Assembly (NCBI GenBank): GCA_965364615.1 | Contig: CBDTYO010000002.1 | Coordinates: forward strand, 1-37,393 | Direction: 5' to 3' | Length of the DNA stretch: 37,393 nucleotides | Origin: an uncultured Bacteroidia bacterium | GTDB taxonomy: Bacteria; Bacteroidota; Bacteroidia; Bacteroidales; GCA-2748055 | Part shown: in pieces, positions 14,395 to 29,592 of the stretch | Position numbering within the stretch: the first letter of the stretch is position 1 | Layout of the letters: each line of letters starts with the position of its first letter | The notes under the pieces: model-generated | Database searches by the model: none | Told to the model about the DNA's origin: nothing | What the model saw: only the letters and a program-made list of their open reading frames with translations | Translations under genes and position numbers: made by a program

Positions 14395-14410
14395 TTTGTA
14401 TATTTATATC

Positions 14411-15449: not shown

Positions 15450-16109
15450 TTATACGTGGGATACACAATAGATCACACTCTCAATCTCATCGCTCAGGTT
15501 GACATTATTTACAACGATATACTCCGGGACTTTTAGGATCACCGGGGCAAAGTTGATGATCCCTTCCACCCCATATTCCAACAGCTTGTCACAAACCGAC
15601 TGGGCTGCCAGATCCGGAACTGCCAGAATCGCAGTCCGGACCGAAAACCTGTCGATGACTTCCTTCAGGCGCTCCATGGTGTACACCGGGATATCAGACC
15701 GTATGCGTTGTTTGGAAGGATCAATATCGAAGGTGGCCACTATATTGATCATGCGTTGGCTGAAATTGCTGTAATTGGCCAGTGAGGATCCGATGTTTCC
15801 CCGGCCCATCACAATGATATTCTGGCTGCCATTCCTGTAAAAAATTCCTTCCATTTCAGTGATCAGCTGATCCACGAGATATCCGCCCCGCTGGTTCCCC
15901 TTGATCCGGTATTCCGAAAAATCCTTTCTCACCTGCTCGGCCGAGATTCCGGTTTCCTTTCCCAGGGTATAGGAATATACCCTTTTTACCCCCAGGGCCT
16001 GCAGTCTAAGCAGGCTGCCGCGATACAGAAGGATCCTTCTCAGGCTCTTCCTCAATGGGCATTTTGTATTTTTTTTCACATTATTCTTTTTCTTAGGCGC
16101 ATATTTCAC
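15450..16109 (-). CDS. rex: Redox-sensing transcriptional repressor Rex
   Basis: It has an N-terminal winged-helix region (RRILLYRGSLLRLQALGVKRVYSYTLGKETGISAEQVRKDFS) and a Rossmann motif (IIVMGRGNIGSSLANY). The start is GTG, so the exact start is uncertain. It is divergent from the hydrogenase operon. Confidence 0.85.
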   Translation of the reverse strand: MKYAPKKKNNVKKNTKCPLRKSLRRILLYRGSLLRLQALGVKRVYSYTLGKETGISAEQVRKDFSEYRIKGNQRGGYLVDQLITEMEGIFYRNGSQNIIVMGRGNIGSSLANYSNFSQRMINIVATFDIDPSKQRIRSDIPVYTMERLKEVIDRFSVRTAILAVPDLAAQSVCDKLLEYGVEGIINFAPVILKVPEYIVVNNVNLSDEIESVIYCVSHV

Positions 16110-16179: not shown

Positions 16180-16195
16180 TGTTACATGTTTCACA
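16180..16195. promoter_or_regulatory. Candidate Rex operator in the rex/hydrogenase divergent intergenic region
   Basis: The sequence is TGTTAC-ATGT-TTCACA. Against the commonly cited Rex consensus TGTGAA-N4-TTCACA, the right half matches 6/6 and the left half 4/6. It lies 75 nt upstream of the first operon gene. Confidence 0.3.
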
Positions 16196-16269
16196 GCATA
16201 TGTCCAGGGATTCCGGGTTGACTGATATTCGGACTGAATATATTTTTATGGTTATATTTTTCACATATA

Positions 16270-17265
16270 ATGAAGAGGATCACAATCCCCAAGCGCGAAT
16301 GGGATGAGAGGATCCAAGAGCTCCTTTCGTCTTGGAATTTTTATGCCCCGGTGGAAAATGAGTTCAGTTGTGACTATGCCCTGTTGAGTTCCGAAACAGT
16401 TTCTGGGATCGTATACAACAAACCCAAACCGGTTACCCCCTTAAAAAAATTCTTTCTCCCAATCAAGGAAAACGTGACCACCCTCCACCAAAACAGCCGC
16501 CCGGTGGTGATCCTTGGGGCTCCGAATTGCGATGTGATGGCCCTGGCCTTGCTGGACCAGATCTATCTGGACCAGGATTATTACGACCCTGCATATGGTG
16601 AGCGAAGAGAGAGGACGACCATCATCACTTCCGACTGTTTCAGCATTCAGGAGCATTGTCACTGCACCAGCTATGGCATTGATCCCAAAGGCAATGAACA
16701 CTCAGATCTATCTGTAGCCCTGATAGAAGATCAGGTGATTCTCACCACATTCAATGAGAAGGGAGAATCATTCATTGAAAAGCTGGGCATGACGGTCACT
16801 GTTGATCCCGGGAAGCAGCTCATGGAGCTTCTGAAAAACAAGCATCAGGAAGTGGTGAAGTTACTGGCCAGGCAGAATGAGGGACTCCCGGATACCGAGG
16901 AAACCGGCAAGCTCATCAGAGCCAATGGGGAAGAGGTCTGGAAGAAGTACGCCAGGGATTGTGTATCCTGTGGAGCCTGCAGCGCCATTTGTCCTTCCTG
17001 TTCCTGCTTCTTGCTGATCGATAAGCCGGGATTTCAAAAAATCAGGCAGCTCGACACCTGCCAGTATCCTGGTTTTGAGCGCGTAGCAGGAGGTGAGGAT
17101 GCCCTGGGGCCGCTTTCTGAGCGGTTCAGGAACCGCTACCTGTGCAAATATGTCTGGAAGCCCGGAAACTACCATTTGAACGCTTGTACCGGTTGTGGCC
17201 GTTGTATCGAGACCTGCATTGGACAGATCAATAAGAATGAACTCATCATGGAGTTGTCAAACTGA
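16270..17265 (+). CDS. Fe-S subunit, sulfhydrogenase beta (HydB) / AsrA-like
   Basis: 331 aa. Motifs are LGAPNCDVMALALLD, a CHC motif, CVSCGACSAICPSCSCF, LDTCQYPGFERVAGG and CTGCGRCIETC. This layout is shared by AsrA and the group-3b hydrogenase beta subunit. Confidence 0.75.
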   Translation: MKRITIPKREWDERIQELLSSWNFYAPVENEFSCDYALLSSETVSGIVYNKPKPVTPLKKFFLPIKENVTTLHQNSRPVVILGAPNCDVMALALLDQIYLDQDYYDPAYGERRERTTIITSDCFSIQEHCHCTSYGIDPKGNEHSDLSVALIEDQVILTTFNEKGESFIEKLGMTVTVDPGKQLMELLKNKHQEVVKLLARQNEGLPDTEETGKLIRANGEEVWKKYARDCVSCGACSAICPSCSCFLLIDKPGFQKIRQLDTCQYPGFERVAGGEDALGPLSERFRNRYLCKYVWKPGNYHLNACTGCGRCIETCIGQINKNELIMELSN

Positions 17266-17271
17266 GCCGAC

Positions 17272-18096
17272 ATGGGAATAAACGGAAATTTTTACAAACC
17301 CCTGAAATGTGAGCTGACCAAGGTGATCGATGAATCGCCGCTGATCAAAACATTTGTCCTGGTGCCGGAAAAAGAATTCTCTTTTGCCACCGGACAATTC
17401 ATCGAGGTCACCATCGACGGCCTGGGAGAAGCGCCATTTACGCCCTCGTCCTCCCCGCTGCAGAAAGATAAGCTTGAGGTCACCGTCATGAAAACCGGCT
17501 ATGTCACCGATCATATGCACACCATGAAGCCGGGAGATGTGATGGGAATCAGGGGGCCATTCGGACGTGGATATCCTGTAGAAAGATTCCATGACAAGGA
17601 GGTGCTGATCCTGGGAGGAGGTTGTGGATTTGCCCCCATCCGTTCCCTGCTGTTTAACCTGATCGCGATCTCCGATAAACTGAGAAAGGTGACCCTCTGT
17701 TACGGTTCCAAAACCCCCGAAGATTGTATCTATAAACCCTATATCCAGGAATTGCGGGGTACTCCCAAGTTTGAGGTGCTCCGGAGCGTGGACCAGGCAG
17801 ATTCCAATTGGACCGAGCGGGTAGGGGTGGTCACCGTTTTGCTTGACGATGTAAACATGGACATCCCTAACTCGGTAGCCGTGGTATGCGGTCCCCCCAT
17901 CATGATGAAATTCGGAACCATGAAGTTGCTGGAAATGGGATACCCGGAAGAAGATATTTACCTGTCCATGGAGAAAAATATGTCCTGTGGCCTTGGAAAA
18001 TGCGGGCACTGCATGATGGGTCAGTACCTGGTTTGCAAAGACGGACCGGTCTTTACCTACACCGAAATCAAAGATCAACCCCATATCTGGAACTGA
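17272..18096 (+). CDS. FAD/NAD(P)-binding oxidoreductase with C-terminal [2Fe-2S], sulfhydrogenase gamma (HydG) / AsrB / PyrK-like
   Basis: 274 aa with a ferredoxin-reductase-type fold. Motifs are GQFIEVTIDGLGEAPFTPSS, VLILGGGCGFAPIRS (the nucleotide-binding GGGxGxAP) and CGLGKCGHCMMG...VCKDGPVF. Confidence 0.8.
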   Translation: MGINGNFYKPLKCELTKVIDESPLIKTFVLVPEKEFSFATGQFIEVTIDGLGEAPFTPSSSPLQKDKLEVTVMKTGYVTDHMHTMKPGDVMGIRGPFGRGYPVERFHDKEVLILGGGCGFAPIRSLLFNLIAISDKLRKVTLCYGSKTPEDCIYKPYIQELRGTPKFEVLRSVDQADSNWTERVGVVTVLLDDVNMDIPNSVAVVCGPPIMMKFGTMKLLEMGYPEEDIYLSMEKNMSCGLGKCGHCMMGQYLVCKDGPVFTYTEIKDQPHIWN

Positions 18097-18097
18097 C

Positions 18098-18595
18098 ATG
18101 GCACAAAAGATCCTGATCGACCTGGAGAAACTCAGATCCATTGAGGGCACAAGCAGCGATCAAAGTCCCCCGGAAGGGTTCTGTGGATTCTCCATTGACG
18201 CCCGGGGCTTAAAAAGCATCCGCGAGCAGGCCGTATTCCGCTTTTCCTGCCGCAGGTGCTCCGATGCCCCCTGCATCGCTGTTTGCCCGGCCGAGGCCCT
18301 GGAGAAAGATGAAGAGGGATTCATTTCCCGCTCCACAAACCTTTGCATTGGTTGCAAATCCTGTGTTGTCATTTGTCCCTTCGGGACCATGATGAACGAT
18401 TTCTTTGAATACCACCGCAACAAGGAGAATTACTACGACCTGTCGGATGAGAAGGAACTGGATCTCTGGATCCGGTCTTCCCCCGAAGGAGCTGTCTCCC
18501 GGGTAGACATGGAGGAGGACCCGGAACAACATATCTACCAATTGAATGAGCATATCCTGGTGCGGGAACGCACATGGAATACTGATCACATGTAA
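18098..18595 (+). CDS. 2x[4Fe-4S] ferredoxin-like electron-transfer subunit (HycB/HydN-like)
   Basis: The motifs are CRRCSDAPCIAVCP and CIGCKSCVVICPFG. It starts 2 nt after the preceding gene. Confidence 0.75.
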   Translation: MAQKILIDLEKLRSIEGTSSDQSPPEGFCGFSIDARGLKSIREQAVFRFSCRRCSDAPCIAVCPAEALEKDEEGFISRSTNLCIGCKSCVVICPFGTMMNDFFEYHRNKENYYDLSDEKELDLWIRSSPEGAVSRVDMEEDPEQHIYQLNEHILVRERTWNTDHM

Positions 18596-18605
18596 ATATA
18601 CTCTT

Positions 18606-19538
18606 ATGGGAACAAGCCTTTTCTATTTCCTTGTATACCCCGGTTTTCTGTTCATGGCTGTGATAGGGGGACTGCTTTCCTGGTTCGACCGGAAAATCAC
18701 AGCCGGGGTGCAGTTTCGCAAAGGGCCTCCAGTTCTTCAGCCCTTTTATGATTTCTTTAAACTTTTGCTGGTGAAGGAGACCATCCTGCCGGCAAGGGGG
18801 GCCAAGGGTTTGTTCCTGGCTGCTCCGGTATTTGCTGTGTTTGGTGCCACCATGGCCGGGGTTTTTATCCTGCTGCCCCTGCTGAACATCACCACGGGAT
18901 TTCATGGGGATCTGATTGTGATTTTCTACCTGCTCACCATTCCTTCACTGACCTATGTCATCGGGGCCCTTTCCTCAGGAAACCCCCTGGCGGCCATAGG
19001 AGGATCCCGGGAAATGAAACTCATACTGAGTTATGAACTGACCTTTCTGCTGGTGCTGGTGGGCATCATCATCAAGTCTGACCAGAGCATTGATCTGTAC
19101 CAGATCATTCAAACGCAACATAACGGCACTCCCTTCATTGGAAGCATATCCGGGGTGCTGCTGTTTTTGGTGGCCATTTTCTGCCTGCAGGCAAAACTCG
19201 CCCTGGTACCCTTCGACATGCCCGAAGCGGAAACTGAGATCAGCGACGGCATATTCATTGAATACTCCGGCACTCCCTATGCCATGATCAAACTATCAAA
19301 GTACATCCTCTTTTTTGTGCTGCCTGCCTTTGTGGTGGCCCTGCTCATGAACGGGACCCGGCTGGAAGGCATTGGCATACTCTGGGCGGTGCTCAAGCTG
19401 GTGGCCGTGGTGCTGCTGCTGACCCTCATTCGGAATACCAATCCGAGGATCAAGATCAAGCAGGCGATTCGCTTCTTCTTTGTCTGGATGAATCTATTGG
19501 TGATTATTGCTATTGTTCTGGCAATCTTTGGTTTATAA
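18606..19538 (+). CDS. Membrane anchor subunit, NuoH / HycD / MbhM-like
   Basis: The motif is LSWFDRKITAGVQFRKGPP. It is multi-TM, with the conserved region ...LALVPFDMPEAETEISDGIFIEYSG. The ATG at 18606 is preferred over 18546, which overlaps the upstream gene. Confidence 0.85.
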   Translation: MGTSLFYFLVYPGFLFMAVIGGLLSWFDRKITAGVQFRKGPPVLQPFYDFFKLLLVKETILPARGAKGLFLAAPVFAVFGATMAGVFILLPLLNITTGFHGDLIVIFYLLTIPSLTYVIGALSSGNPLAAIGGSREMKLILSYELTFLLVLVGIIIKSDQSIDLYQIIQTQHNGTPFIGSISGVLLFLVAIFCLQAKLALVPFDMPEAETEISDGIFIEYSGTPYAMIKLSKYILFFVLPAFVVALLMNGTRLEGIGILWAVLKLVAVVLLLTLIRNTNPRIKIKQAIRFFFVWMNLLVIIAIVLAIFGL

Positions 19539-19548
19539 AAAAAAGAAC

Positions 19549-19962
19549 GTGGGATTTAAAAGCTTCTGTTTCAAGAAATCATTGTGGTTGTTTCACTTTG
19601 GAGGCGCCTCATGCAACAACTGTGATATTGAGATCCTGGATTGCCTGACACCCAGGTATGATGTGGAACGCTTCGGTATGCTGCTGGTGGGCAGTGTCAG
19701 GCATGCCGATGTCTTGCTGGTCAATGGCTCCATCAACAAGAAGGACAAACCCCGCCTCCTTGAAATCTATGAGCAGGCCCCAAAACCTGTGCTGGTGGTG
19801 GCCATTGGTGCCTGTGGTTGCACGGGGGGCATTTTTGCGGAAGGAGATACTTTTGCCGGACCGGTGGACCAAATCATCCCGGTGGATGCTTACATCCCGG
19901 GGTGTCCCCCCAAACCGGAGGCCATACTGGCCGGAGTTGTCAAACTAATGGGTAAAAACTAA
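19549..19962 (+). CDS. [NiFe]-hydrogenase small subunit, NuoB / HycG / MbhJ-like
   Basis: The motifs are SLWLFHFGGASCNNCDIE, AIGACGCTGG and YIPGCPPKPE, which supply the four Cys of the proximal [4Fe-4S]. The start is uncertain (GTG 19549 or TTG 19507), and no ATG is available. Confidence 0.85.
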   Translation: MGFKSFCFKKSLWLFHFGGASCNNCDIEILDCLTPRYDVERFGMLLVGSVRHADVLLVNGSINKKDKPRLLEIYEQAPKPVLVVAIGACGCTGGIFAEGDTFAGPVDQIIPVDAYIPGCPPKPEAILAGVVKLMGKN

Positions 19963-19967
19963 GGGCC

Positions 19968-20414
19968 ATGATGCTTGAAGAACTAAAAAAGACCTTCTCC
20001 AAAGAAATACTGGATTCAGAGTCGAGGAATGAACGCCGGGTCACCTTGTTCATCCAACCTTCCGCCCTGGTTGCCATGGCTGAACACCTGTATAAACAAC
20101 TTGGCTTCAGGTTTATCATAGCTTCGGCCCTTCACACCAAAAGGGGATTTGAGATCTTCTACCATTTCTCCTACGATAAAACCGGACTGATCCTGAATCT
20201 GCATGTGACCCTCGATCAGGCCAAGCCGGAGGTTGAATCCCTCTCAAACCTGTTCTCAGCCACCAATTGGATTGAAAGAGAAATGCATGAACTCTTCGGT
20301 ATAGACTTTTTGAATCATCCCAACCTGGAACAGTTGCTCTCAGACGGAAACTGGGCCCTGGGAGAATATCCCTACAGAAAGACATTCAAATCAAACGGGG
20401 AGGCCAAAACATGA
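19968..20414 (+). CDS. NuoC / MbhK-like hydrogenase subunit
   Basis: 148 aa. The motif is ...SATNWIEREMHELFGIDFLNHPNL, the NuoC/30-kDa-subunit signature. An ATGA overlap joins it to the large-subunit gene. Confidence 0.85.
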   Translation: MMLEELKKTFSKEILDSESRNERRVTLFIQPSALVAMAEHLYKQLGFRFIIASALHTKRGFEIFYHFSYDKTGLILNLHVTLDQAKPEVESLSNLFSATNWIEREMHELFGIDFLNHPNLEQLLSDGNWALGEYPYRKTFKSNGEAKT

Positions 20415-21604
20415 GCAAGCAAACATTGATACCCGTAGGGCCCTACCATCCTTTACAGGAGGAGCCCGAGCTATTCAAACTTTATTGCGACGGCGAGATT
20501 GTCAAGGATGTTAAATGGGAGACGGGCTATAACCACCGCGGCATTGAGAAACTGGCCGAGAAGAAAAGTTACGAAGAAGTTTTTTTCCTGGTGGAAAGGA
20601 TCTGTGGGATCTGCTCTACCTCCCATCCCTTCGCTTTTGCGAACAGCGTGGAAGAAATCGCAGGAGTGGAGATTCCTGATCGTGCCAAGTACATACGCTC
20701 CATCATCGGGGAACTGGAGCGCATCCACAGCCACCTGCTCTGGGTAGGTCTTGCCGGACATTTCCTGGGTTACAACACCGTCTTTATGTGGGCCTGGAAA
20801 TACCGCGAACCGGTCCTGGATCTGTTCGAGATGATCACCGGTAACCGGAACAGCTATGCCATGTTTAAGGTGGGCGGGGTCAGAAGGGATATCGAAAACC
20901 AGATGGTGCCGGCCATCGAAAAGGTGCTGGCACTGGTGAAGAAAAAAACAGACATGCTGGTGGGTGCTGTCATGGACGATCCCGTGATCCATGCCCGTAC
21001 CAAAGGGGTGGGGATCCTGACCCCGCAGGACATACTGGATTTTGCCGCCGTGGGACCCACCGCCCGGGCATCGGGGGTAGACATCGATGTGAGGCGCGAC
21101 GACCCTTATGCTGCCTATCCGCTGGTGAACTGGAAAGTCATCACTGCACAGGCCGGCGATGTATTTGCCAAGGCAGAGGTGCGTTTGCTGGAGATGTATG
21201 AATCCATTGCCATCATTGAACAATGCCTGACCGGATTAAAAAAGGAGAAAGAAGGCCAGGTGGAAGTGAAAGTGAAACACATCCCCGAAGGATATGGAAC
21301 GGGGCATGCAGAGGCCCCCAGGGGGGAAGTCTATCATTTTGTGGTATCAGATGGTTCCAATTCTCCGGCCCGCCACAAAATCAGGGCCCCAAGCTACACC
21401 AACATTGCCACCTTCAAGAAGTCCTGCGTGGGTCAGAGCATTTCTGATGCCACCATCTCCCTGGCAGCCGTGGACCCCTGTTATTGCTGCACCGAAAGGC
21501 TCGCAGTGGCTCTGGACCGGGCTTCGGGCAAACGGCTCATGAATGCCCGGGAGATCATCAAGCAGTCTGCCGAGCTAACCAACAAATTGCTTCAACAAGA
21601 ATAA
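20411..21604 (+). CDS. Group-4 [NiFe]-hydrogenase large (catalytic) subunit, NuoD / HycE / MbhL-like
   Basis: 397 aa. The N-terminal motif is ERICGICSTSH (Cys65/Cys68) and the C-terminal motif is DPCYCCTER (21473-21499). A 34-aa tail follows the C-terminal motif. Confidence 0.9.
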   Translation: MSKQTLIPVGPYHPLQEEPELFKLYCDGEIVKDVKWETGYNHRGIEKLAEKKSYEEVFFLVERICGICSTSHPFAFANSVEEIAGVEIPDRAKYIRSIIGELERIHSHLLWVGLAGHFLGYNTVFMWAWKYREPVLDLFEMITGNRNSYAMFKVGGVRRDIENQMVPAIEKVLALVKKKTDMLVGAVMDDPVIHARTKGVGILTPQDILDFAAVGPTARASGVDIDVRRDDPYAAYPLVNWKVITAQAGDVFAKAEVRLLEMYESIAIIEQCLTGLKKEKEGQVEVKVKHIPEGYGTGHAEAPRGEVYHFVVSDGSNSPARHKIRAPSYTNIATFKKSCVGQSISDATISLAAVDPCYCCTERLAVALDRASGKRLMNAREIIKQSAELTNKLLQQE

Positions 21605-21607
21605 ACC

Positions 21608-23434
21608 ATGATCATGACCCAGGCCATACAAATCATTGCCGTTCCCGTATTAATGGGCATCCTGTTGTTCCTGCTGCCGTCCGCACTGAGAGTGATTAAA
21701 GCCTTCATTGCCATGGGTGTGGTTCTTTTCACGGGATATCTGGCCCTGAGCCTGTTCGGATCAGAAGACCTGGTATTCTCCCCTGATTACTGGACCCTAA
21801 CAGATAAATACTGTTCCTTCTCCCTGGATGGATTAAGCAGGCTCATCCTCCTTTTTATGGGTTTTATTTCCCTGGTGGTTGTGATCTATTCTCTGGGTTA
21901 CAAAGGGGCAGCGGGCATGCGGAATTTCCATGCCTGGTTCCTGATTACCCTGGGATTTTCCTTTGGTGCCGTACTGGCCAACAACCTGCTGCTATTCCTG
22001 ATCTGCTGGGGGATCCTGGGAATTTCGCTCTACCAGCTGGTGCACGGAAAAGATGAAAGAAGCAGTGCAGCGGCCAAGAAGACCCTGGTGTTGATCGGAG
22101 CCTCAGACGGGATCATGATCCTGGGGATTGCCATTCTCTGGAGGGTCACCGGGACCCTGAATATGAATGAGATAACGCTTCCAACCAGCGATCTGGTCCG
22201 GACCGTGGCCTGCCTCTCCCTGCTGGTGGGGAGCTTCACCAAGGCAGGAGCCTTCCCTTTTCACACCTGGGTGCCCGATTATGCCGAGACAGCCCCTGCC
22301 ACTTCCTCGGCCTTCCTTCCCGCCTCTCTGGACAAGCTCCTGGGCATTTATTTCCTGGCCAGGATCACCACCCAGCTTTTTGTGATGAGTGATTGGATGA
22401 GATTTGTGTTGCTGAGCATCGGGGTTGTGACCATCATTACCGCGGTTTTGATGGCCCTGGTACAACACAATTACAAACGATTGCTTGGCTTTCACGCAGT
22501 CTCCCAGGTGGGTTATATGGTAGTGGGATTCGGATTGGGGTCCATGTTGGGCGTCGCAGCCGGCCTGTTTCACATGATCAACAATGCCATTTACAAAGGG
22601 GGTTTATTTCTTTCAGTCGGTGCAGTGAAGCACCAAACGGGCAAGGAGGACATGGAAGATCTGGGCGGATTATCCAGGGCCATGCCCCTCACTTTCTTTG
22701 CCACCCTGGTATTTGCCCTGTCCATCTCGGGGATCCCGCCATTCAATGGTTTTGCATCCAAATGGATGATATATCAGGGCATCATTGATTTCGGTCAGGG
22801 TTCCGGCATCTCCAACCAGCTCTGGATGGTGTGGCTCGGACTGGCAGTCCTGGGCTCAGCCCTTACCCTGGCCAGCTTCATCAAGTTTACGGGGGGCATT
22901 TTCCTGGGACGCCAGTTAAAACCAGGTTCCAAGATCAAAGAGGTGGGTGCCCTGATGTGGGTCCCCATGATGATCCTTGCCCTGATTTGTATCGGGTTTG
23001 GGGCATTTTCCACCAAGCTGGTGGTTCCCCGTTTATTCATGCCTGTGACAGGTACATTTGAATTTACAGGGACCTGGGCCTCAGGCACAGTAAGCATCCT
23101 GGTCCTGGTATCCATTGTCCTGGGACTGTTGATTTACCTGCTGGGCAATGCGAAAAATTTCCGCACCTCCGATAGTTTTGTGGGTGGGGAAAAGATCCAG
23201 GACCAAACTTCTTATTCCACCCTGGAGTTTTATAAGAGCCTGCAGGAATTCCCCTGGTTGGGCCGCATGTTTCAAAGAGCCAAAGAGGGATGGTTTGATC
23301 TCTACCAGCTGGGCAGGCAATTTATTTCCTGGCTTGGGGCCATTTTCAGCCGCTTACATACCGGAGTTTTACACGACTATGCGCTATGGGTGTTTGCAGG
23401 TGTTGTGATCCTTTTGTTGTTGCTAATCACCTAA
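21608..23434 (+). CDS. Antiporter-like subunit, MrpA N-terminal / NuoL / MbhH-like
   Basis: 608 aa, multi-TM. Motifs are FHTWVPDYAETAPATSSAFL, HMINNAIYKGGLFLSVGAV and GIPPFNGFASKW, the proton-conducting Mrp/Nuo L/M/N signature. Confidence 0.85.
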   Translation: MIMTQAIQIIAVPVLMGILLFLLPSALRVIKAFIAMGVVLFTGYLALSLFGSEDLVFSPDYWTLTDKYCSFSLDGLSRLILLFMGFISLVVVIYSLGYKGAAGMRNFHAWFLITLGFSFGAVLANNLLLFLICWGILGISLYQLVHGKDERSSAAAKKTLVLIGASDGIMILGIAILWRVTGTLNMNEITLPTSDLVRTVACLSLLVGSFTKAGAFPFHTWVPDYAETAPATSSAFLPASLDKLLGIYFLARITTQLFVMSDWMRFVLLSIGVVTIITAVLMALVQHNYKRLLGFHAVSQVGYMVVGFGLGSMLGVAAGLFHMINNAIYKGGLFLSVGAVKHQTGKEDMEDLGGLSRAMPLTFFATLVFALSISGIPPFNGFASKWMIYQGIIDFGQGSGISNQLWMVWLGLAVLGSALTLASFIKFTGGIFLGRQLKPGSKIKEVGALMWVPMMILALICIGFGAFSTKLVVPRLFMPVTGTFEFTGTWASGTVSILVLVSIVLGLLIYLLGNAKNFRTSDSFVGGEKIQDQTSYSTLEFYKSLQEFPWLGRMFQRAKEGWFDLYQLGRQFISWLGAIFSRLHTGVLHDYALWVFAGVVILLLLLIT

Positions 23435-23446
23435 TCTGATCAAAAC

Positions 23447-23980
23447 ATGGAATTAACAATTTCCATCATACTGGGATTTATGATCATCGGAGCGATCTAT
23501 GCCTTACACGCAAAAGATCTCCTTTCGGCCGTGGTAGCCATGGGCATCGTAGGCTACGGACTGGTGATCTGCTTCTTATTGCTGAAAGCCCCGGACCTGG
23601 CCATCGTTCAGATTGTGGTTGAAACCATTACCCTGGTGATCATGGTGGCAGTGGTGCTGGACAGTACCCGAAAGGAATTGGAAGTGCCCTTCGACCGTAA
23701 ATCATTGCTCAACACCATTGCGGGATTTGTGGTGTTTGCCGGCTTGTTCTACTTTTTTCTGAATGCCATTGAAAGTCTCGATCCCCTGGGAATGCATTCG
23801 CTCAGAATGGCAGAACCCTATGTAACCGGTGCCGTGGAAAGCACGGGCAGCATCAACCTGGTCACGGGTGTTTTATTCGACTTCAGGGCCTATGATACAC
23901 TGGGAGAAGCCGTCATCCTCTATACTGCCGCGCTGGGAGCCCTTACCCTGCTTAGAATGAAAGGAAAAAAAACAGACTGA
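23447..23980 (+). CDS. MrpA C-terminal-like subunit (DUF4040 plus MnhB-type domain; MbhD/E equivalent)
   Basis: 177 aa with 5-6 TM segments. The C-terminal motif is NLVTGVLFDFRAYDTLGEAVIL, the MnhB-domain signature. Confidence 0.7.
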   Translation: MELTISIILGFMIIGAIYALHAKDLLSAVVAMGIVGYGLVICFLLLKAPDLAIVQIVVETITLVIMVAVVLDSTRKELEVPFDRKSLLNTIAGFVVFAGLFYFFLNAIESLDPLGMHSLRMAEPYVTGAVESTGSINLVTGVLFDFRAYDTLGEAVILYTAALGALTLLRMKGKKTD

Positions 23981-23981
23981 T

Positions 23982-24419
23982 ATGGAAGGAATGTCCACAA
24001 TTGTCAAAAAGGTCAGCCAACTGGTGGCGGGACTCATTTTCATGTACGGGATATATATCATTCTGCATGGACACCTGACCCCGGGAGGAGGATTTGCCGG
24101 CGGGGCCATCATTGCAGGAGCATTTATTCTGCTGATCCTGGCCTTTGGAAGCAGTGCCCTGAATCTGAAGAAAGAGGTGGTGGGCTCCTCCGCTACTGAG
24201 AGTCTGGCCATCCTGATGGTGGTGATCCTGGCTGTGATGTCCCTGTTGCTGGGACTCAAGGTATTCTTCACCAACTTCCTTCCCAAGGGGGAGCCTGGAG
24301 AGCTGCTGAGCGCAGGAGTGATCCCCCTCTACAATATTTTCATCGGCATCGAAGTGGCCGGGGCCATCCTGACCATATTCCTTGCCCTGGTCATCTTTAA
24401 AGAGGAGAGCACAAAATGA
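23982..24419 (+). CDS. mrpB: Na+/H+ antiporter subunit B (MrpB/MnhB, MbhF-like)
   Basis: The motif is ILHGHLTPGGGFAGGAIIAGAF. It is 145 aa with 4 TM segments and starts 2 nt after the preceding gene. Confidence 0.8.
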   Translation: MEGMSTIVKKVSQLVAGLIFMYGIYIILHGHLTPGGGFAGGAIIAGAFILLILAFGSSALNLKKEVVGSSATESLAILMVVILAVMSLLLGLKVFFTNFLPKGEPGELLSAGVIPLYNIFIGIEVAGAILTIFLALVIFKEESTK

Positions 24420-24754
24420 TTGTCTATGTACTTTGTTTCGTTCTTTTTCTGGTGGGCCTCTATGGGGTGATCACCCGGAGAAACCTGATCAAGATTGCCA
24501 TATCGCTTTCTATCATGGAGTTCAGCATTTTCCTGATTCTTGTGCTGATCGGCTATATTGATCAGGGCCTGGCTCCCATTGTCGAACCCGGATCCGGAAC
24601 GCAGGTATATGTGGATCCACTGCCCCAGGCCATGGTGCTCACCGCCATTGTGATCGGTCTGGCTACCACCGCCATGCTCATGGCCATTGCCATCAGGCTC
24701 TACCGCAAGTATAAGACCTTTGACATTCGTGAAATTAAAAACCTAAGAGGATAA
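24416..24754 (+). CDS. mrpC: Na+/H+ antiporter subunit C (MrpC/MnhC, NuoK-like)
   Basis: 112 aa with 3 TM segments. The motif is GLYGVITRRNLIKIAISLSIME. It has an ATGA overlap with the preceding gene. Confidence 0.8.
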   Translation: MIVYVLCFVLFLVGLYGVITRRNLIKIAISLSIMEFSIFLILVLIGYIDQGLAPIVEPGSGTQVYVDPLPQAMVLTAIVIGLATTAMLMAIAIRLYRKYKTFDIREIKNLRG

Positions 24755-24757
24755 GAG

Positions 24758-26293
24758 ATGGATGCACTGATTCCCCTGTTCGTTGCCATACCCCTGTTGG
24801 TTGCCTTCCTGATCATCCTGCTCAGTAAGCTGGTCAGGGGAATTCACAGGTTCCTGGCACCATTGACCCTGCTGGCGCTCCTGCTTATGGCTGTTTTTGA
24901 ATTTACCGGTCTGGGAGGTATTTCCCGCACCTATGCCATGGGTGGATGGACCGCAGATGGCGGATTCCCTGTGGGAATATTCCTGGTGCTGGACGGATTT
25001 TCAGTGCTTATGCTTTGCATCATCAACCTCATCGGACTGGTGGCCCTGTTTTACTCGCTGTCCTATATGGCCAAATATACCGCTGAGGCCAATTATTACG
25101 CCCTGTTTTGCCTGATTGTGGCCGGAATGAACGGGGTGGTGCTCAGTGGCGATCTTTTCAACTTGTTTGTCTTCCTGGAAGTGTCGGTCATTGCTTCCTA
25201 TGCGCTTGTGGCTTTCGGCGTAGGGAAAACCGAATTGGAAGCCTCCTTCAAATACCAGGTGCTCGGGGGCCTTGCTTCTATGCTGATCCTGCTGGCCATC
25301 GGATTGATTTACTGGAAATCCAAAACACTAAACCTGGCCGATGTGCGAAATGTATTGGATGAAGGATATAGCCGGGCATTTTATGTGTTTGTGCAGGTAT
25401 TGCTTATTGCAGGATTTGGCCTGAAAGCAGCCATCATCCCCTTTCATGCATGGCTGCCCGACGCCCACTCTTCAGCGCCTTCCCCCATTTCTGCCATGCT
25501 GTCCGGGGTCCTGATCAAAGCAGTGGGCATCTATGTGCTGATCCGCCTGTTCTTCAATCTGTTTGTATTCAGCCATGAAATTGCCCTGGTTTTGACTTCG
25601 CTGGGAGCCATATCCATGGTGGTGGGATCGTTGCTGGCCATCATGCAATGGGATGTGAAAAGATTGCTGGCCTATTCCAGCATCAGTCAGATTGGATACG
25701 TGGTCATGGCCTTTGGAATGGGTATTCTTCTCCTGATGAAAGGGGACCAGGAAGCTGCTGCCATCCTGGCCATAGGCGGAGGTATCTACCACATGATCAA
25801 CCATGCCGTTTTCAAAGGACTGCTGTTCCTCAATGCCGGATCCCTGGAATACAGGCTGGATACCCGAAACCTGAAAGAGATGGGAGGGCTCTCAAAGGCC
25901 ATGCCGGTGACCTCCACCACCTCATTCATGGCGTCCATGTCCATCTCAGGAATCCCGCCCTTCAATGGTTTCTTCAGCAAACTCATCATCATCGTGGCAG
26001 CCATCAACGGGCGATTCTACCTGCTGGCCACCCTGGCTGTGGTGGTGAGCATCATCACCCTGGGTTACTTCCTGAAATTCCAGCGCTTTGCCTTCTTCAA
26101 CAAAGCCGGTAAGGCTGTGGAAAAAATTAAGGAAGTTCCCTTGGCCATGTCATTGAGCATGATATTTCTGGCCATCCTGTGCGTGGGATTGAGCCTGCTG
26201 GCCATTCCGTCCGTCAGCGACACTGTGCTGCGCCCGGCCATTGATGTACTGATTCAACCCGAACTCTATTCAACAACAATTATTGGAATTTGA
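24758..26293 (+). CDS. mrpD: Na+/H+ antiporter subunit D (MrpD/MnhD, NuoM/N-like)
   Basis: 511 aa. Motifs are FHAWLPDAHSSAPSPISAMLSG, HMINHAVFKGLLFLNAG and GIPPFNGFFSK. Confidence 0.85.
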   Translation: MDALIPLFVAIPLLVAFLIILLSKLVRGIHRFLAPLTLLALLLMAVFEFTGLGGISRTYAMGGWTADGGFPVGIFLVLDGFSVLMLCIINLIGLVALFYSLSYMAKYTAEANYYALFCLIVAGMNGVVLSGDLFNLFVFLEVSVIASYALVAFGVGKTELEASFKYQVLGGLASMLILLAIGLIYWKSKTLNLADVRNVLDEGYSRAFYVFVQVLLIAGFGLKAAIIPFHAWLPDAHSSAPSPISAMLSGVLIKAVGIYVLIRLFFNLFVFSHEIALVLTSLGAISMVVGSLLAIMQWDVKRLLAYSSISQIGYVVMAFGMGILLLMKGDQEAAAILAIGGGIYHMINHAVFKGLLFLNAGSLEYRLDTRNLKEMGGLSKAMPVTSTTSFMASMSISGIPPFNGFFSKLIIIVAAINGRFYLLATLAVVVSIITLGYFLKFQRFAFFNKAGKAVEKIKEVPLAMSLSMIFLAILCVGLSLLAIPSVSDTVLRPAIDVLIQPELYSTTIIGI

Positions 26294-26294
26294 T

Positions 26295-26780
26295 ATGAGA
26301 TACCTGGCACTGTTCCTACTGACCTTTGTATTCTGGTTGCTTCTGACCTTCGATCTTTCGGTGCCCAACCTGATCGCCGGCGGAGCGGCTGCCCTGGTCA
26401 CCTCTCTCTTGTTTACCAAGTACTTTTTCCACAAGGTGGCAAAATTCATACAACCGGTCCGCTACTTCTGGCTGCTGGTCTACCTGGTCATTTTTACCTG
26501 GGAGTGCATCAAGGCCAACTTTGACGTGGCCTATCGGGTATTGCATCCAGCCATGCCTATCAAGCCCGGAATTGTCAAGGTACACCTGGAACTGAAATCA
26601 GACTTTGCCAGAACCATGTTGGCCAATTCCATCACCATGACCCCGGGCACCATTTCGGTGGACATCATCGATGACGTGCTCTTCGTACACTGGATCTATG
26701 TAAGATCGGAAGATCCGGAAGTCTATAGCCGGAGAATTGCAGGAAAATTCGAAAAATACATTAAAAAGATCTTTGAATGA
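26295..26780 (+). CDS. mrpE: Na+/H+ antiporter subunit E (MrpE/MnhE)
   Basis: It has two N-terminal TM segments, then ANFDVAYRVLHPAMPIKPGIV...MLANSITMTPGT. The ATG at 26295 is preferred over the TTG at 26283. Confidence 0.8.
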   Translation: MRYLALFLLTFVFWLLLTFDLSVPNLIAGGAAALVTSLLFTKYFFHKVAKFIQPVRYFWLLVYLVIFTWECIKANFDVAYRVLHPAMPIKPGIVKVHLELKSDFARTMLANSITMTPGTISVDIIDDVLFVHWIYVRSEDPEVYSRRIAGKFEKYIKKIFE

Positions 26781-27043
26781 TGGACATGCTTGCTATTCTA
26801 CTATACATCCAGATGGCCCTGGCCGTTTTTTGCTTATACAGGGTCATTCGCGGACCTTCCATTGCAGATCGCATGGTGGGCATTGATATTTTCGGGATAC
26901 TGGTGGTGGGCATCTGTGCCATCCTGGCCATTGAGACCCAGCGTACATTCATCCTCGATATCGGGATCGCCTGGATCATACTCAGTTTCATAGGAACCCT
27001 AACCCTCGCCAAATACCTGAGCGGTAAAAAATTAAACGAATAA
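26777..27043 (+). CDS. mrpF: Monovalent cation/H+ antiporter subunit F (MrpF/MnhF)
   Basis: 88 aa with 3 TM segments. The motif is YRVIRGPSIADRMVGIDIFG. It has an ATGA overlap with the preceding gene. Confidence 0.8.
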   Translation: MMDMLAILLYIQMALAVFCLYRVIRGPSIADRMVGIDIFGILVVGICAILAIETQRTFILDIGIAWIILSFIGTLTLAKYLSGKKLNE

Positions 27044-27044
27044 A

Positions 27045-27359
27045 ATGGTAAGTACAATATTCATCTCCGTAGGTGTGCTTTTCAACCTGTTTGGCTGCAT
27101 CGGATTGATCAGGCTTCCTGATGTATACAACCGCTTGCAATCTGCCACCAAGTGCGTCACCCTGGGTACTTGCAGCATCCTGGTGGGCGTGGCTTTCCAT
27201 TTTGGTCTGATGGAAGCCGGCATCAAAGCGCTGATTGCCATCCCTTTGCTATTCTTCGGGGCAACGGTGGCTGCCCATGCGCTGGTAAGGGGCGCCTATC
27301 ATGCAGGCATTAAACTGGGAGACAAAAGTGTTAAGGACGACTATAAAGATGCGCTATAA
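27045..27359 (+). CDS. mrpG: Monovalent cation/H+ antiporter subunit G (MrpG/MnhG)
   Basis: 104 aa. The motif is LFGCIGLIRLPDVYNRLQSATKCVTLG. Confidence 0.8.
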   Translation: MVSTIFISVGVLFNLFGCIGLIRLPDVYNRLQSATKCVTLGTCSILVGVAFHFGLMEAGIKALIAIPLLFFGATVAAHALVRGAYHAGIKLGDKSVKDDYKDAL

Positions 27360-27967
27360 TGAAGTATCCTAAGATCAGAGAGCTTAAAGAGGCGGTCATT
27401 TCACTGGTCACGCCAGCCTATACCTCCTCCTTTCCCCACAAACCCCATACCCCCTTTAAAAACTACAGGGGAAAACCGGAAGTGGACGATAATCATTGCG
27501 TGGGATGCGAAACCTGTGCCAACGTATGCCCTTCCAATGCCATAACCATTGAAGATGACCGTACCACTGGTCAGAGGACAATCACAAGGAACTTCGGGAA
27601 ATGCATCTTCTGTGGAATGTGCCAGCAACACTGCATCACGGGCAAGGGGGTGGTGCTTTCGGATCAAATTTTTGATCTGGCAGTCTTCGACAGGGCCAAG
27701 GTGGTAGAGAAGCAGGAAAAGAAGCTGGTGATTTGCAAGAATTGCCATGCCATCATCACCACCGACGAGCACATCAAATACATGCACGACAAACTGGGTC
27801 CCAAAGCCTTTGCTTCCACCCTCAACCTGAACCTGTTGAACGAAAAACTGAAACTGGCTGAAAAAGAGGATGCCGAAGTGGAAATCAAAGATGGCCTTAA
27901 GAGAAAGGATATGTTCAACATCATCTGTCCCAACTGCATGCGATCTGTCCTAATTCAATATATTTAG
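27359..27967 (+). CDS. 2x[4Fe-4S] NuoI / MbhN-like hydrogenase subunit with an extra C-terminal Cys4 extension
   Basis: The cluster motifs are CVGCETCANVCP and CIFCGMCQQHC. An additional tail of about 100 aa carries CKNC (C126/C129) and CPNC (C190/C193). A TAATG overlap joins it to mrpG. Confidence 0.8.
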   Translation: MKYPKIRELKEAVISLVTPAYTSSFPHKPHTPFKNYRGKPEVDDNHCVGCETCANVCPSNAITIEDDRTTGQRTITRNFGKCIFCGMCQQHCITGKGVVLSDQIFDLAVFDRAKVVEKQEKKLVICKNCHAIITTDEHIKYMHDKLGPKAFASTLNLNLLNEKLKLAEKEDAEVEIKDGLKRKDMFNIICPNCMRSVLIQYI

Positions 27968-27973
27968 CCGGAA

Positions 27974-28423
27974 GTGCATGAACTGGCCCGGCTAATCAAA
28001 CATTCCTCTTGCCTGCTCTTTGTGGGAGTGGGCAATGTGCTGAAAAGAGACGATGGTGTGGGCGTGATCATCAGCCAGGGAATCATTGCCAGACCGGGTA
28101 TATTAACACTGACCGTAGAAGTCAGTATCGAAAACTATATAGGCAAAATTAACTCCATGGACCCCGGAGAGATAGTCATTGTCGATTGCATGGAGCTGGG
28201 GAGCGAGCCCGGAACTTACCGCCTGCTTGAACTTCAGCATTTGGAGGACCTCACCTTCAATACCCACAATATTTCTCTGGGCAAGCTGAGCGATTTTTTC
28301 CATTATCCCACCTATGTGCTGGGGATTCAGCCCCAGAGTGTGGAATTCGGGGATGAACTATCATTGCCTGTGAAAGATACTGCTGCACAGATCATCCAAT
28401 TCATTAACCAAAACCCGCAATAG
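27974..28423 (+). CDS. Hydrogenase maturation endopeptidase (HycI/HybD family)
   Basis: LLFVGVGNVLKRDDGVGV is the GxGN...DDGxG signature. It is 149 aa with a GTG start. Confidence 0.8.
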   Translation: MHELARLIKHSSCLLFVGVGNVLKRDDGVGVIISQGIIARPGILTLTVEVSIENYIGKINSMDPGEIVIVDCMELGSEPGTYRLLELQHLEDLTFNTHNISLGKLSDFFHYPTYVLGIQPQSVEFGDELSLPVKDTAAQIIQFINQNPQ

Positions 28424-28425
28424 TC

Positions 28426-28836
28426 ATGTCCAACAATTATTCATGCCCGGAGTGCAAAAGCAGGATGAGCATTGGCAGCTCCCTTGTCTTATCTGCCAAA
28501 TCGCCCAACAATGAAAGGGGACTTATCTTCCTTGATACCGAACTTGGAAGTTACACCAAAAGAACCCATCCCGATTTTGAGCTTAAGGAGGGGGTGGACT
28601 ATAAATTCTATTGTCCTGTCTGTCATTTTAAACTGAACAAAGCTGATAATCCCCACCTGGTGAAAATGTATATGAGCGATGATTCGGGAAAAGAATTTGA
28701 AATCAATATTTCCAACATCATCGGTGAACACTGTACCTACAAAATTACCGAGAAAAAGGTGGAAGCATTTGGCCCGGACGCCGAAAGATATCGCAAATAC
28801 CTTGATCTTCCCTCGGAATTCCGAAAGTACCTGTAA
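28426..28836 (+). CDS. Uncharacterised Cys4 zinc-ribbon-like protein, last gene of the hydrogenase operon
   Basis: 136 aa. It has CPEC (C7/C10) and CPVC (C63/C66). It starts 2 nt after the protease gene's stop codon. I do not recognise the family. Confidence 0.5.
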   Translation: MSNNYSCPECKSRMSIGSSLVLSAKSPNNERGLIFLDTELGSYTKRTHPDFELKEGVDYKFYCPVCHFKLNKADNPHLVKMYMSDDSGKEFEINISNIIGEHCTYKITEKKVEAFGPDAERYRKYLDLPSEFRKYL

Positions 28837-28856: not shown

Positions 28857-28886
28857 CCCCGCAATGCCCTCACTTGCGGTGTTTTG
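28857..28886 (+). terminator. Rho-independent-type terminator closing the hydrogenase operon
   Basis: The stem is CCGCAA (28858-28863) / TTGCGG (28873-28878) with a 9-nt loop, followed by TGTTTTG. It begins 21 nt after the last stop codon. Confidence 0.55.
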
Positions 28887-28977: not shown

Positions 28978-29592
28978 ATGAGAAGGTCCATCCGACAACT
29001 TGCTGCTGCCATTTTGTTTACAGCCTTATTTTGTTCTTTCTATCCCCAGGCCCGGGCCCAGTCCGGTGCCCTTGCAGTGCTTGATTCGGCCCTGCTGGAG
29101 TCGCAGCTGGAATATGTCCACGAAAACACCCGTGTATATAATAATTTCAGGGCCATCCGGGACGATATTTTTCTGAAATTGAAAGGAAATGTCATCGATA
29201 CCCTGGTGGAACAGAAGCTGCTGGTGGAACAATTGAACAGCCGGCTCGCCGAGAGGGGCTTTCAGATTGAAACCTTGAATACAGACCTGGCCAGAACCAA
29301 GAATGAGCGTGATGAGGCCATCAAAAACAAAAACAGCCTTGCCATTTTTGGAATTGCCATGAATAAGGCCTTATACAACTCGGTCATGTGGTTTATAGTG
29401 CTGGGGCTGGCAGCGCTTGCAGTCATTATGCTTGTGTTGTTCAGACGCTCTCACGTAGTAACCAGTCAGACCAAAAATGAACTTGATACCACGCTGAAGG
29501 AGTTTGAGGAATACCGAAAAAGCGCCAGGGAGAAATACGAAAAGCTGGTGGTTTCCCACCACCATGAGATCATGAAGCTGAAGAACAGCTAG
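28978..29592 (+). CDS. Hypothetical coiled-coil membrane protein
   Basis: It has a signal peptide (…FYPQARAQ), a coiled-coil region, one TM segment (VMWFIVLGLAALAVIMLVLF) and a charged C-terminal helix. Confidence 0.5.
   Translation: MRRSIRQLAAAILFTALFCSFYPQARAQSGALAVLDSALLESQLEYVHENTRVYNNFRAIRDDIFLKLKGNVIDTLVEQKLLVEQLNSRLAERGFQIETLNTDLARTKNERDEAIKNKNSLAIFGIAMNKALYNSVMWFIVLGLAALAVIMLVLFRRSHVVTSQTKNELDTTLKEFEEYRKSAREKYEKLVVSHHHEIMKLKNS

Follow-up and report, generated by a model that had tools for sequence, protein, structure and literature searches.

An Mrp-linked group-4 [NiFe] hydrogenase operon with a putative NAD(P)H-type input module next to rex in a Bacteroidales bacterium

Group-4 [NiFe] hydrogenases are membrane-bound relatives of complex I. 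We analyzed an operon for such an enzyme in a window of 37,393 nucleotides (nt), that is, the whole stretch of DNA studied here (contig CBDTYO010000002.1 of assembly GCA_965364615.1, an uncultured Bacteroidales bacterium). The operon lies at positions 16270-28836 of the + strand, and its 18 genes are named g1 to g18. It combines genes for a sulfhydrogenase beta/gamma-like oxidoreductase pair, a [NiFe] hydrogenase core and a full Mrp antiporter set, and it stands opposite a gene for the NADH/NAD+ redox sensor Rex, with Rex operator-like boxes in between. On balance, we read the 18 genes as probably encoding one Rex-regulated, membrane-bound, ion-translocating group-4 [NiFe] hydrogenase whose redox partner would be NAD(P)H, most likely NADH. 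We advance more tentatively the idea that this would be a complex I-like, ion-translocating NADH:H+ oxidoreductase, in which an FNR-type NADH module (HydBG-like and not NuoEFG) was independently recruited and a Na+/H+ gradient, acting through the Mrp arm, drives the uphill electron transfer.

Gene content and cofactor motifs

The ORF list of the window contains 18 co-directional open reading frames (ORFs) in this region and not 19, as counted in a first-pass annotation made from the sequence. The same 18 were called independently on a related contig of 3.5 Mb (L038), with whose gene calls the start codons in the window were chosen to agree. The gaps between neighboring genes range from -4 to +12 nt, in line with the earlier estimate of at most about 12 nt, so there is no room for a nineteenth gene. 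The translational coupling reported before was also found, with ATGA at g6/g7, g10/g11 and g13/g14 and TAATG at g15/g16. The products were assigned by Pfam, NCBIfam and PDB sequence searches, and the Pfam and NCBIfam profile searches bore out the three modules (input oxidoreductase, hydrogenase core and Mrp) that had been proposed. The genes are as follows.

g1, 16270-17265, + strand: Fe-S subunit like sulfhydrogenase beta or AsrA; 331 amino acids (aa), 17 Cys
g2, 17272-18096, + strand: FAD/NAD(P)H/[2Fe-2S] subunit like sulfhydrogenase gamma or AsrB; 274 aa
g3, 18098-18595, + strand: HycB/HydN-type electron-transfer subunit for two [4Fe-4S] clusters; 165 aa, Pfam Fer4 families
g4, 18606-19538, + strand: NuoH/MbhM-like membrane anchor; Pfam NADHdh, 1.1e-61
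g5, 19549-19962, + strand: NuoB/HycG/MbhJ-like small subunit, proximal [4Fe-4S] cluster; Pfam Oxidored_q6, 1.4e-32
g6, 19968-20414, + strand: NuoC/MbhK-like subunit; Pfam Complex1_30kDa, 8.7e-25
g7, 20411-21604, + strand: group 4 [NiFe] hydrogenase large subunit; 397 aa, Pfam Complex1_49kDa and NiFeSe_Hases
g8, 21608-23434, + strand: antiporter-like subunit similar to the MrpA N-terminal domain, NuoL and MbhH; 608 aa
g9, 23447-23980, + strand: MbhD and MbhE fusion corresponding to the C-terminal part of MrpA; Pfam MbhD and MbhE
g10, 23982-24419, + strand: MrpB/MnhB/MbhF-like; Pfam MnhB, 1.4e-24; NF006248, 107.6 bits against a cutoff of 92
g11, 24416-24754, + strand: MrpC/NuoK/MbhG-like; Pfam Oxidored_q2, 9.9e-28
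g12, 24758-26293, + strand: MrpD-like second antiporter-like subunit; 511 aa, Pfam Proton_antipo_M, 1.1e-66
g13, 26295-26780, + strand: MrpE/MnhE/MbhA-like; Pfam MNHE, 2e-43
g14, 26777-27043, + strand: MrpF/MbhB-like; Pfam MrpF_PhaF, 8.2e-14
g15, 27045-27359, + strand: MrpG/MnhG/MbhC-like; Pfam PhaG_MnhG_YufB, 6.7e-22; TIGR01300, 85.3 bits against a cutoff of 63.1
g16, 27359-27967, + strand: HycF/NuoI-like subunit for two [4Fe-4S] clusters; NCBIfam formate hydrogenlyase Fe-S subunit, 9.3e-34
g17, 27974-28423, + strand: HycI-type large-subunit maturation endopeptidase; Pfam HycI
g18, 28426-28836, + strand: orphan Zn-ribbon-like protein; 136 aa, invariant CPxC...CPxCH

The core is predicted to be that of a complete, working-type group-4 [NiFe] hydrogenase, and the ligand motifs, the Pfam families and the PDB matches agree with the earlier assignment to this group. 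All four Ni-Fe cysteines are present in g7: its segments RICGICSTSH and DPCYCCTER line up with the ligand motifs of MbhL and HycE, and they do not vary among the 27 related loci included in a comparison of large subunits. Among solved structures, the large subunit nearest to g7 is Pyrococcus furiosus MbhL (8.4e-84, 285 bits, 39.7% identity), followed by Escherichia coli HycE (2.7e-82, 280 bits, 36.7% identity), and MbsL and NuoD matched less well in the PDB search. The best NCBIfam models for g7 were NuoD and FpoD, both under their cutoffs, in a library that holds no group-4-specific large-subunit model. Both the large and the small subunit belong to the NuoD/NuoB type (NuoD 1.3e-98 vs 1.7e-10 for ShyA and 5e-05 for HydD). 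The small subunit g5 keeps the cysteines of the CxxC, GxCxC and GCPP motifs (CNNC, GACGC, GCPP), and the start of g4, placed at 18606, is supported by its counterpart in L038, which was called at 310 aa. Beyond DPCYCCTER, g7 carries a C-terminal tail of 34 aa that aligns to the tail of HycE, which is the part removed by HycI. The endopeptidase g17 passes the model TIGR00072 (76.3 bits against 47.45) and stays below the hycI equivalog TIGR00142 (2.1e-22, 79.5 against 119.1). We therefore take the g7 tail to be, like that of HycE, cleavable by a HycI-type protease. The CxxC ligand motifs, the NuoB-, NuoC-, NuoH- and NuoI-like subunits, the antiporter-like subunit and the protease gene with its matching tail, which together define group 4, are all present. 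A non-hydrogenase of the MBS/Mbx type was rejected because g7 has all four Ni-Fe cysteines, of which MBS keeps two (PMC8165549).

The input module resembles the beta and gamma subunits of the soluble sulfhydrogenases. The g1 product matches Pfam Fer4_22 (2.8e-20) and the NCBIfam models ShyB (1.6e-40), AsrA (9e-33) and HydB (4e-31), all under their cutoffs, and its sole PDB match is the beta subunit of P. furiosus sulfhydrogenase I (9nez_B, 2.4e-25), to which it aligns over the full length with the Cys motifs in register. The g2 product contains the Pfam domains FAD_binding_6, NAD_binding_1 and DHODB_Fe-S_bind, matches PRK08345 (5.9e-64) and AsrB (6e-62) of NCBIfam under both cutoffs, and has the gamma subunit of the same sulfhydrogenase as its best PDB match (9nez_C, 2.2e-49). 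It keeps the [2Fe-2S] motif C-x4-C-x2-C...C (CG-GKCGHC...CKDGPVF) and the GGxGxxP nucleotide fold. These matches bear out the sulfhydrogenase beta/gamma-like (AsrAB-like) FAD/Fe-S pair of the first-pass annotation. The pair stands as the proposed input, but the module has a third member that had been missed, the HycB-type ferredoxin g3. This protein has eight Cys in two cluster motifs, matches NCBIfam HydN (1.3e-15) and finds in the PDB 9mqx_E, the subunits HycB3 and HycB4 of HDCR and the subunit HycB of formate hydrogenlyase (FHL) (7e-09). As previously stated, neither a formate dehydrogenase nor a CO dehydrogenase is present in the operon. With g1 and g2 matching ShyB/ShyC, HydB/HydG and AsrA/AsrB at similar levels, all far under the equivalog cutoffs of NCBIfam, they form a separate subfamily of NAD(P)H:Fe-S oxidoreductase pairs. 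In the closest loci (L001-L011, L035), g1 diverges much faster than its partners, with 66-77% identity to the window against 85-91% for g2 and 93-97% for the NuoB-like g5.

Several known enzymes were considered for these genes and rejected. An AsrABC sulfite reductase was ruled out, since no AsrC-like siroheme subunit was found among the operon products with Pfam or NCBIfam, and the AsrA and AsrB scores (113.9 against a cutoff of 323 and 209.1 against 288.6) place g1 and g2 outside that system. A soluble sulfhydrogenase of group 3b was dismissed as the operon is without group-3 alpha and delta subunits, and an FHL as it is without Fdh. No molybdopterin family was matched among the 18 products in Pfam and NCBIfam, which leaves the operon without the FdhF or Fdh component that an FHL has.

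The connection between the pair and the core appears to resemble that of FHL, with HycB-, HycF- and NuoB-like subunits (g3, g16 and g5). In FHL (PDB 7Z0S), electrons pass from the docked dehydrogenase to HycB, HycF, the small subunit and finally the [NiFe] site, while in the membrane-bound hydrogenase (MBH) of P. furiosus MbhN is the subunit where ferredoxin electrons enter. The g16 product matches E. coli HycF (7z0s_F) with 95 bits (4.6e-26) vs 38 bits for MbhN (6cfw_N). Together with g17 and g18, it is placed after the Mrp genes, a correction to the first-pass annotation. Besides its two [4Fe-4S] motifs, g16 has an extra C-terminal pair, CxxC (126/129) ... CxxC (190/193), which could be an additional metal site.

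The membrane arm comprises a complete Mrp set, as had been claimed, with g8 and g9 corresponding to MrpA and g10-g15 to MrpB-G, plus the NuoH-like g4. The g8 product matches Pfam Proton_antipo_M (7.7e-59) and, in the PDB, MbhH best (9.4e-51) and then MrpA (1.6e-46). The NCBIfam matches of g9 cover residues ~600-790 of the MrpA models, and g12 matches the NCBIfam antiporter subunit D (6.5e-117). MrpA-G are thus encoded together with a hydrogenase, as in the Mrp-linked enzymes of HydDB groups 4b and 4d. MBH has a single antiporter-like subunit; with two, the arm predicted here is more like Mrp or MBS in composition.

The last gene, g18, has no significant Pfam family. It has ~97 homologue clusters, labeled "hypothetical protein" or, where named, generically (rubredoxin, C4-type Zn-finger), and its AF2 model (pLDDT 81, mostly beta) gave no PDB fold match by Foldseek (best E = 0.42). 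None of these searches gave a lead on its role. Of 33 loci, 25 have g18 as the last gene of the operon; the eight in which it was not detected are those whose large subunits diverge most (74-80% identity).

Conservation, operon boundaries and the divergent rex gene

The arrangement was followed in two scans, one of genomes seeded with g1 (37 loci) and one of metagenomes seeded with the large subunit (80 loci, 74-93% identity). The first-pass annotation had suggested looking for AsrAB-like genes next to such hydrogenases in genomes and metagenome-assembled genomes (MAGs), and this search found g1-g3 upstream of the hydrogenase in 37/37 of the large-subunit-seeded loci with enough upstream DNA. 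Likewise, g16 and g17 are present in all 33 of those with enough downstream DNA. The g1-seeded loci come from Bacteroidales or Bacteroidia MAGs, the cultured Saccharicrinis sp. 156 (L029), a Salinivirga and two Cloacimonadota; wherever they reach past g1, it is followed by g2, g3, the hydrogenase genes and the Mrp genes, with the order unchanged up to the end of the available DNA (which in L011 stops within g1). The Cloacimonadota loci have the same gene order at 72-73% large-subunit identity to the window. An apparent loss of the large subunit in L034 is a gene split over several frames (14168-15361), and since the contig is from a long-contig MAG assembly, the frameshifts are probably an assembly error and do not mark a pseudogene. 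With the same genes in the same order in more than 100 independent loci, chance is no explanation for the arrangement. The identities of g1-g3 track that of the large subunit (rho 0.69-0.78), much like those of the core subunits, which is consistent with inheritance as one unit.

The top 120 large-subunit homologues listed are 82-97% identical, and those of them with an organism label are Bacteroidales or Bacteroidetes MAGs. The operon is abundant in environmental Bacteroidales, and the Bacteroidota context noted earlier is correct, as the labeled homologues and loci are mostly Bacteroidales. The large-subunit-seeded scan returned close relatives only (at least 74% identity); it confirms the synteny, and the phylogenetic limit of the architecture lies beyond its range.

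The divergent promoter region that was said to bound the operon is a region of 160 nt common to g1 and a gene on the opposite strand. The identity of that gene had gone unnoticed; its product passes three NCBIfam Rex models (best NF003996, 200.6 bits against a cutoff of 138). The features of this region are as follows.

rex, 15450-16109, - strand: NADH/NAD+ redox-sensing repressor; Pfam Put_DNA-bind_N and CoA_binding
Distal Rex operator-like box, 16180-16195, + strand: TGTTACATGTTTCACA, pattern KGTKA-N6-TCACA
Proximal Rex operator-like box, 16250-16265, + strand: GGTTATATTTTTCACA, ending 4 nt before the g1 ATG

The pattern KGTKA-N6-TCACA occurs only twice in the window, both times in this intergenic region, against 0.35 occurrences expected by chance. 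Related loci have TTGTTA-N6-TCACAA at the place of the distal box, and distant loci have a perfect TGTGA-N6-TCACA palindrome 4-6 nt before g1 at the proximal site. A repressor gene and inverted-repeat operator-like boxes in the promoter, the marks of a Rex regulon, are thus both found, and we infer that the operon is Rex-controlled, with the boxes as predicted operators. Of 36 large-subunit-seeded loci, 30 have a divergent rex, as do most of the loci seeded with g1. Rex leaves DNA when the NADH/NAD+ ratio rises; induction of the operon is therefore expected under NADH excess, which favors the H2-evolving direction. The rex gene is the best contextual clue to a link with NADH.

Some further features touch on Rex. 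A further Rex-like box (TGTATTTTTTTTCACA) at 16065-16080 falls within the rex ORF or at its 5' end. Other loci have a box at the corresponding place (9800-9815 in L013, with equivalents in L012, L014, L015, L018, L022, L025 and L036), which in distant loci is a perfect TGTGA-N6-TCACA, and this suggests autoregulation of rex. Two loci (L095, L097) have two rex copies upstream of the operon, one on each strand. In L038, the maturation genes hypF-hypC-hypD-hypE-hypA follow directly behind rex (L038 1-4948), in support of a functional hydrogenase. The hyp genes belonging to the operon in the window must be sought at another site, since the place behind rex is taken there by genes for a phosphotriesterase-family protein, a CAAX-protease-like protein and a MacB/FtsX permease. 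A sigma-70 promoter scan found promoter-like sites at the level of shuffle expectation, with a consensus unsuited to Bacteroidota.

At the other end, the hairpin followed by a T-tract that had been taken for a terminator is present, but it is weak in that role.

Weak hairpin CCGCAA/TTGCGG, 28859-28879 (feature to 28885), + strand: 6-bp GC-rich stem followed by TGTTTTG; possible terminator

Its fold (-11.1 kcal/mol, z = -0.93 against shuffles) is no better than that of shuffled sequence, and a terminator scan did not report it at 28859-28885, which makes it the weakest part of the earlier observation. The operon end is better backed by the gap of 141 nt 3' of g18 and by the next gene (28978-29592), which has no Pfam match, is unrelated to the gene after g18 in L038 and was left out of the operon on these grounds.

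Two other sites in the window, away from the operon, deserve mention. An ORF of 147 aa at 92-535 (- strand) matches only the first 65 positions of a sulfatase profile and adjoins a full-length sulfatase at 532-1989 (- strand); it may be a truncated sulfatase duplicate. At 29671-30579 (+ strand), a weak thymidylate-synthase-like ORF converges on and overlaps an ORF of the nucleoside 2-deoxyribosyltransferase family at 30548-30982 (- strand), and the two may form a nucleotide-modification or salvage pair.

Electron donor, direction and alternative readings

By homology, NAD(P)H would reduce the FAD and then the [2Fe-2S] cluster of g2. From there, electrons would travel by way of the [4Fe-4S] clusters of g1, two more in the HycB-like g3, two in the HycF-like g16 and the proximal one in g5 to the [NiFe] site of g7, where two protons would be reduced to H2. 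Turnover at the interface of g7/g5 with g4 would be coupled to H+ or Na+ movement through the Mrp-type arm g8-g15; which of the two ions is used cannot be read from the sequence. With redox potentials of about -320 mV for NAD+/NADH and -414 mV for H+/H2 (E0'), the formation of H2 from NADH requires about +18 kJ/mol when H2 is at 1 atm, and equilibrium lies at ~10-100 Pa H2 (near 70 Pa). As the reaction is uphill, the membrane arm would allow electrons from NADH to be driven onto protons by an ion gradient. Where H2 is very low, the complex could instead conserve a little energy, and it would in principle be reversible. Its expression would come when NADH must be disposed of as H2, upon derepression by Rex.

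Gene content, cofactor motifs, synteny and the Rex boxes are read from the sequence itself. That the products form a single complex, and which donor, ion and direction it uses, are conclusions drawn from these features, and a number of points weigh against an NAD(P)H-fed enzyme. The support for the enzyme and its close relatives comes from sequence. Both g1 and g2 score under every NCBIfam equivalog cutoff, so they form a distinct subfamily to which the substrate is extrapolated, and whether g2 prefers NADH or NADPH could not be read from its sequence. Both g16 and g3 could take electrons from ferredoxin directly. The production of H2 from NADH is unfavorable unless H2 is low or a gradient is spent. 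The Cloacimonadota loci and some Bacteroidales loci are without an adjacent rex, and Rex also controls ferredoxin-dependent hydrogenases in other bacteria, which makes the Rex link suggestive and not specific. In addition, Mrp-linked hydrogenases of Cloacimonadota, Omnitrophota and Auribacterota have been reported as group 4g, with ferredoxin assumed as the donor (PMC8542988, PMC9324843); the published Cloacimonadota 4g clusters were matched to the loci studied here by phylum and Mrp linkage.

A first alternative is a ferredoxin-dependent hydrogenase of the Mbh type, with ferredoxin electrons entering at g16 or g3. In this case, g1-g2 would be co-expressed but work apart from it as a soluble oxidoreductase (NAD(P)H:ferredoxin or NAD(P)H:acceptor), or they would add a side branch to the complex (ferredoxin:H+/NAD(P)+ oxidoreductase). 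We regard this as unlikely, although it is the alternative that has to be taken most seriously. It would fit the large subunit, which is as near to the ferredoxin-dependent MbhL as to HycE (285 vs 280 bits), and the known role of Rex in the control of ferredoxin-dependent hydrogenases elsewhere; group 4g is listed by HydDB as putatively ferredoxin-coupled (PMC5037454), and the Mrp-linked enzymes of Cloacimonadota have been read in the same way (PMC8542988). However, the tight linkage of g1-g3 to the hydrogenase, found in every testable large-subunit-seeded locus and in two phyla, speaks against this alternative. The g16 product is far nearer to HycF, a relay from a docked dehydrogenase, than to the ferredoxin entry subunit MbhN, a HycB-type connector (g3) is placed between the two parts, and the MAG papers that assumed ferredoxin left the extra genes unexamined.

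The same complex might also run in the uptake direction, oxidizing H2 with NAD(P)+ and either storing the ~18 kJ/mol in an ion gradient or supplying NADPH, as a membrane-bound, energy-conserving analogue of the soluble sulfhydrogenase or Hox. Such a reaction is exergonic at high H2, two antiporter-like subunits fit a pump, and P. furiosus sulfhydrogenase I, the closest source of the beta/gamma pair, is thought to recycle H2 to NADPH. We nevertheless find this rather improbable, as derepression by Rex at already high NADH would be the opposite of what an NADH producer needs, and both HycI and the [NiFe] core belong to the kind found in H2-evolving group-4 enzymes. Very improbable, in our judgment, is a role of g1-g2 as a sulfur, polysulfide or sulfite reductase module that links H2 or ferredoxin to the reduction of sulfur compounds. 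That idea draws on the JGI label of g1 homologues, "sulfhydrogenase subunit beta (sulfur reductase)", and on AsrA and AsrB being among the top NCBIfam matches, but the operon has no AsrC-like (siroheme) subunit, the scores for AsrA, AsrB, ShyB and HydB are all far under the cutoffs, and sulfur reduction by sulfhydrogenase is regarded as non-physiological. Moreover, the large subunit used in sulfur reduction of the MBS type has lost two Ni-Fe cysteines (PMC8165549), whereas g7 has all four. We favor the NAD(P)H-fed, H2-evolving hydrogenase because of the strict linkage of g1-g3, the HycB/HycF-type relay and the predicted control by Rex.

Relation to known systems and significance

In Thermococcus onnurineus, the clusters of HydDB group 4b (formate- or CO-respiring) have the order Fdh2-Mfh2-Mnh2 and CODH-Mch-Mnh3, and the likeness of the operon to them, noticed in the first-pass annotation, is apt. 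When the module make-up is compared, both join in one cluster the genes for a soluble dehydrogenase that takes up the substrate's electrons, for a [NiFe] core of group 4 and for a full set of Mrp/Mnh subunits, and the analogy is strengthened by g16 being nearer to HycF than to MbhN and by g3 being HycB-like. Unlike in T. onnurineus, the input here is a sulfhydrogenase beta/gamma-like pair with a HycB-type ferredoxin and not Fdh or CO dehydrogenase (CODH), the host is a mesophilic bacterium of the Bacteroidales, and a HycF-like subunit and HycI follow the Mrp genes. Group 4b is described in HydDB as Na+-translocating via Mrp (PMC5037454).

Compared with P. furiosus MBH (group 4d, 6CFW), the operon has counterparts of MbhA-H and MbhJ-N, with MbhH as the best match of g8. 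However, MBH is fed by ferredoxin, has no flavoprotein module and contains a single antiporter-like subunit in place of the two found here (g8, g12); its gene order differs, and its MbhN is only weakly matched by g16 (38 bits). From the E. coli FHL-1 (group 4a, 7Z0S), HycE, HycF and HycB rank at or near the top of the PDB matches for g7, g16 and g3. This enzyme also shares the HycI protease and the C-terminal tail, and its relay is the model for the proposed wiring; it differs in its FdhF/molybdopterin subunit and in having only HycC/HycD where the operon has the full Mrp arm. In sulfhydrogenases I and II of P. furiosus (group 3b, 9NEZ), the beta/gamma pair links the hydrogenase to NAD(P)(H). 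These subunits are the best PDB matches of g1 and g2, with the Fe-S, FAD/NAD(P)H and [2Fe-2S] motifs kept, but the pair is joined here to a membrane-bound group-4 core and not to the group-3 alpha and delta subunits. Like complex I, the enzyme would lead from an NADH-oxidizing module through an Fe-S chain to a NuoB/NuoD-type site coupled to antiporter-like subunits; unlike complex I, it would use an FNR/PyrK-type g2 and an AsrA-like g1 in place of NuoEFG, and its acceptor would be H+ at the [NiFe] site and not quinone.

The combination was said in the first-pass annotation to fall outside the standard group-4 architectures. It is indeed uncharacterized, but its novelty was overstated, as similar neighborhoods have been noticed before. 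In Saganbacteria, a group-4 hydrogenase, Mrp-like subunits and asrA/asrB were found in one region with a proposed oxidoreductase module and called "enigmatic" (PMC6349859); according to its published description, that cluster differs from the operon in having a molybdopterin oxidoreductase and cooF. In Elusimicrobia, a "Mbh-Mrp-oxidoreductase type" was reported with reference to the Saganbacteria, its function being stated as unknown (bioRxiv 10.1101/765248), as is that of the Saganbacteria cluster in its own description. Group 4g has been described as structurally heterogeneous, with no biochemically characterized member (PMC7886697), and a review of complex I-like enzymes gives only ferredoxin, CO and formate as donors (PMC8165549). 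A full-text literature search turned up no paper on an NAD(P)H-linked Mbh/Mrp hydrogenase or on the operon as found in Bacteroidales, and yielded just the passing Saganbacteria and Elusimicrobia notices. The large subunit does belong to a clade in which this gene set is the rule, but the objection named in the first-pass annotation also called for a demonstrated function, and no member has one. The system is therefore not categorically new, its parts and its modular principle being known. What appears to be new is an Mrp-linked modular group-4 hydrogenase with a previously uncharacterized NAD(P)H-type input module.

If this reading is true, the operon would represent a new entry for the production of H2 from NAD(P)H, the main fermentative reductant, among the group 4 enzymes, whose known members use ferredoxin, formate or CO, and it would be an alternative to the electron-confurcating [FeFe] hydrogenases. 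It would also be a second, independent way of fixing an NADH module onto the complex I superfamily. Where Mrp-linked hydrogenases of this kind are labeled "ferredoxin-dependent Mbh, group 4g" in models built from genomes of anoxic sediments and digesters, both their donor and their energetics may be misassigned. As a cultured carrier exists in Saccharicrinis sp. 156, the hypothesis is directly testable. For fermentative Bacteroidales and Cloacimonadota, it would mean that H2 can be made from NADH without ferredoxin and without electron confurcation, by a pathway that is switched on through Rex when NADH builds up.

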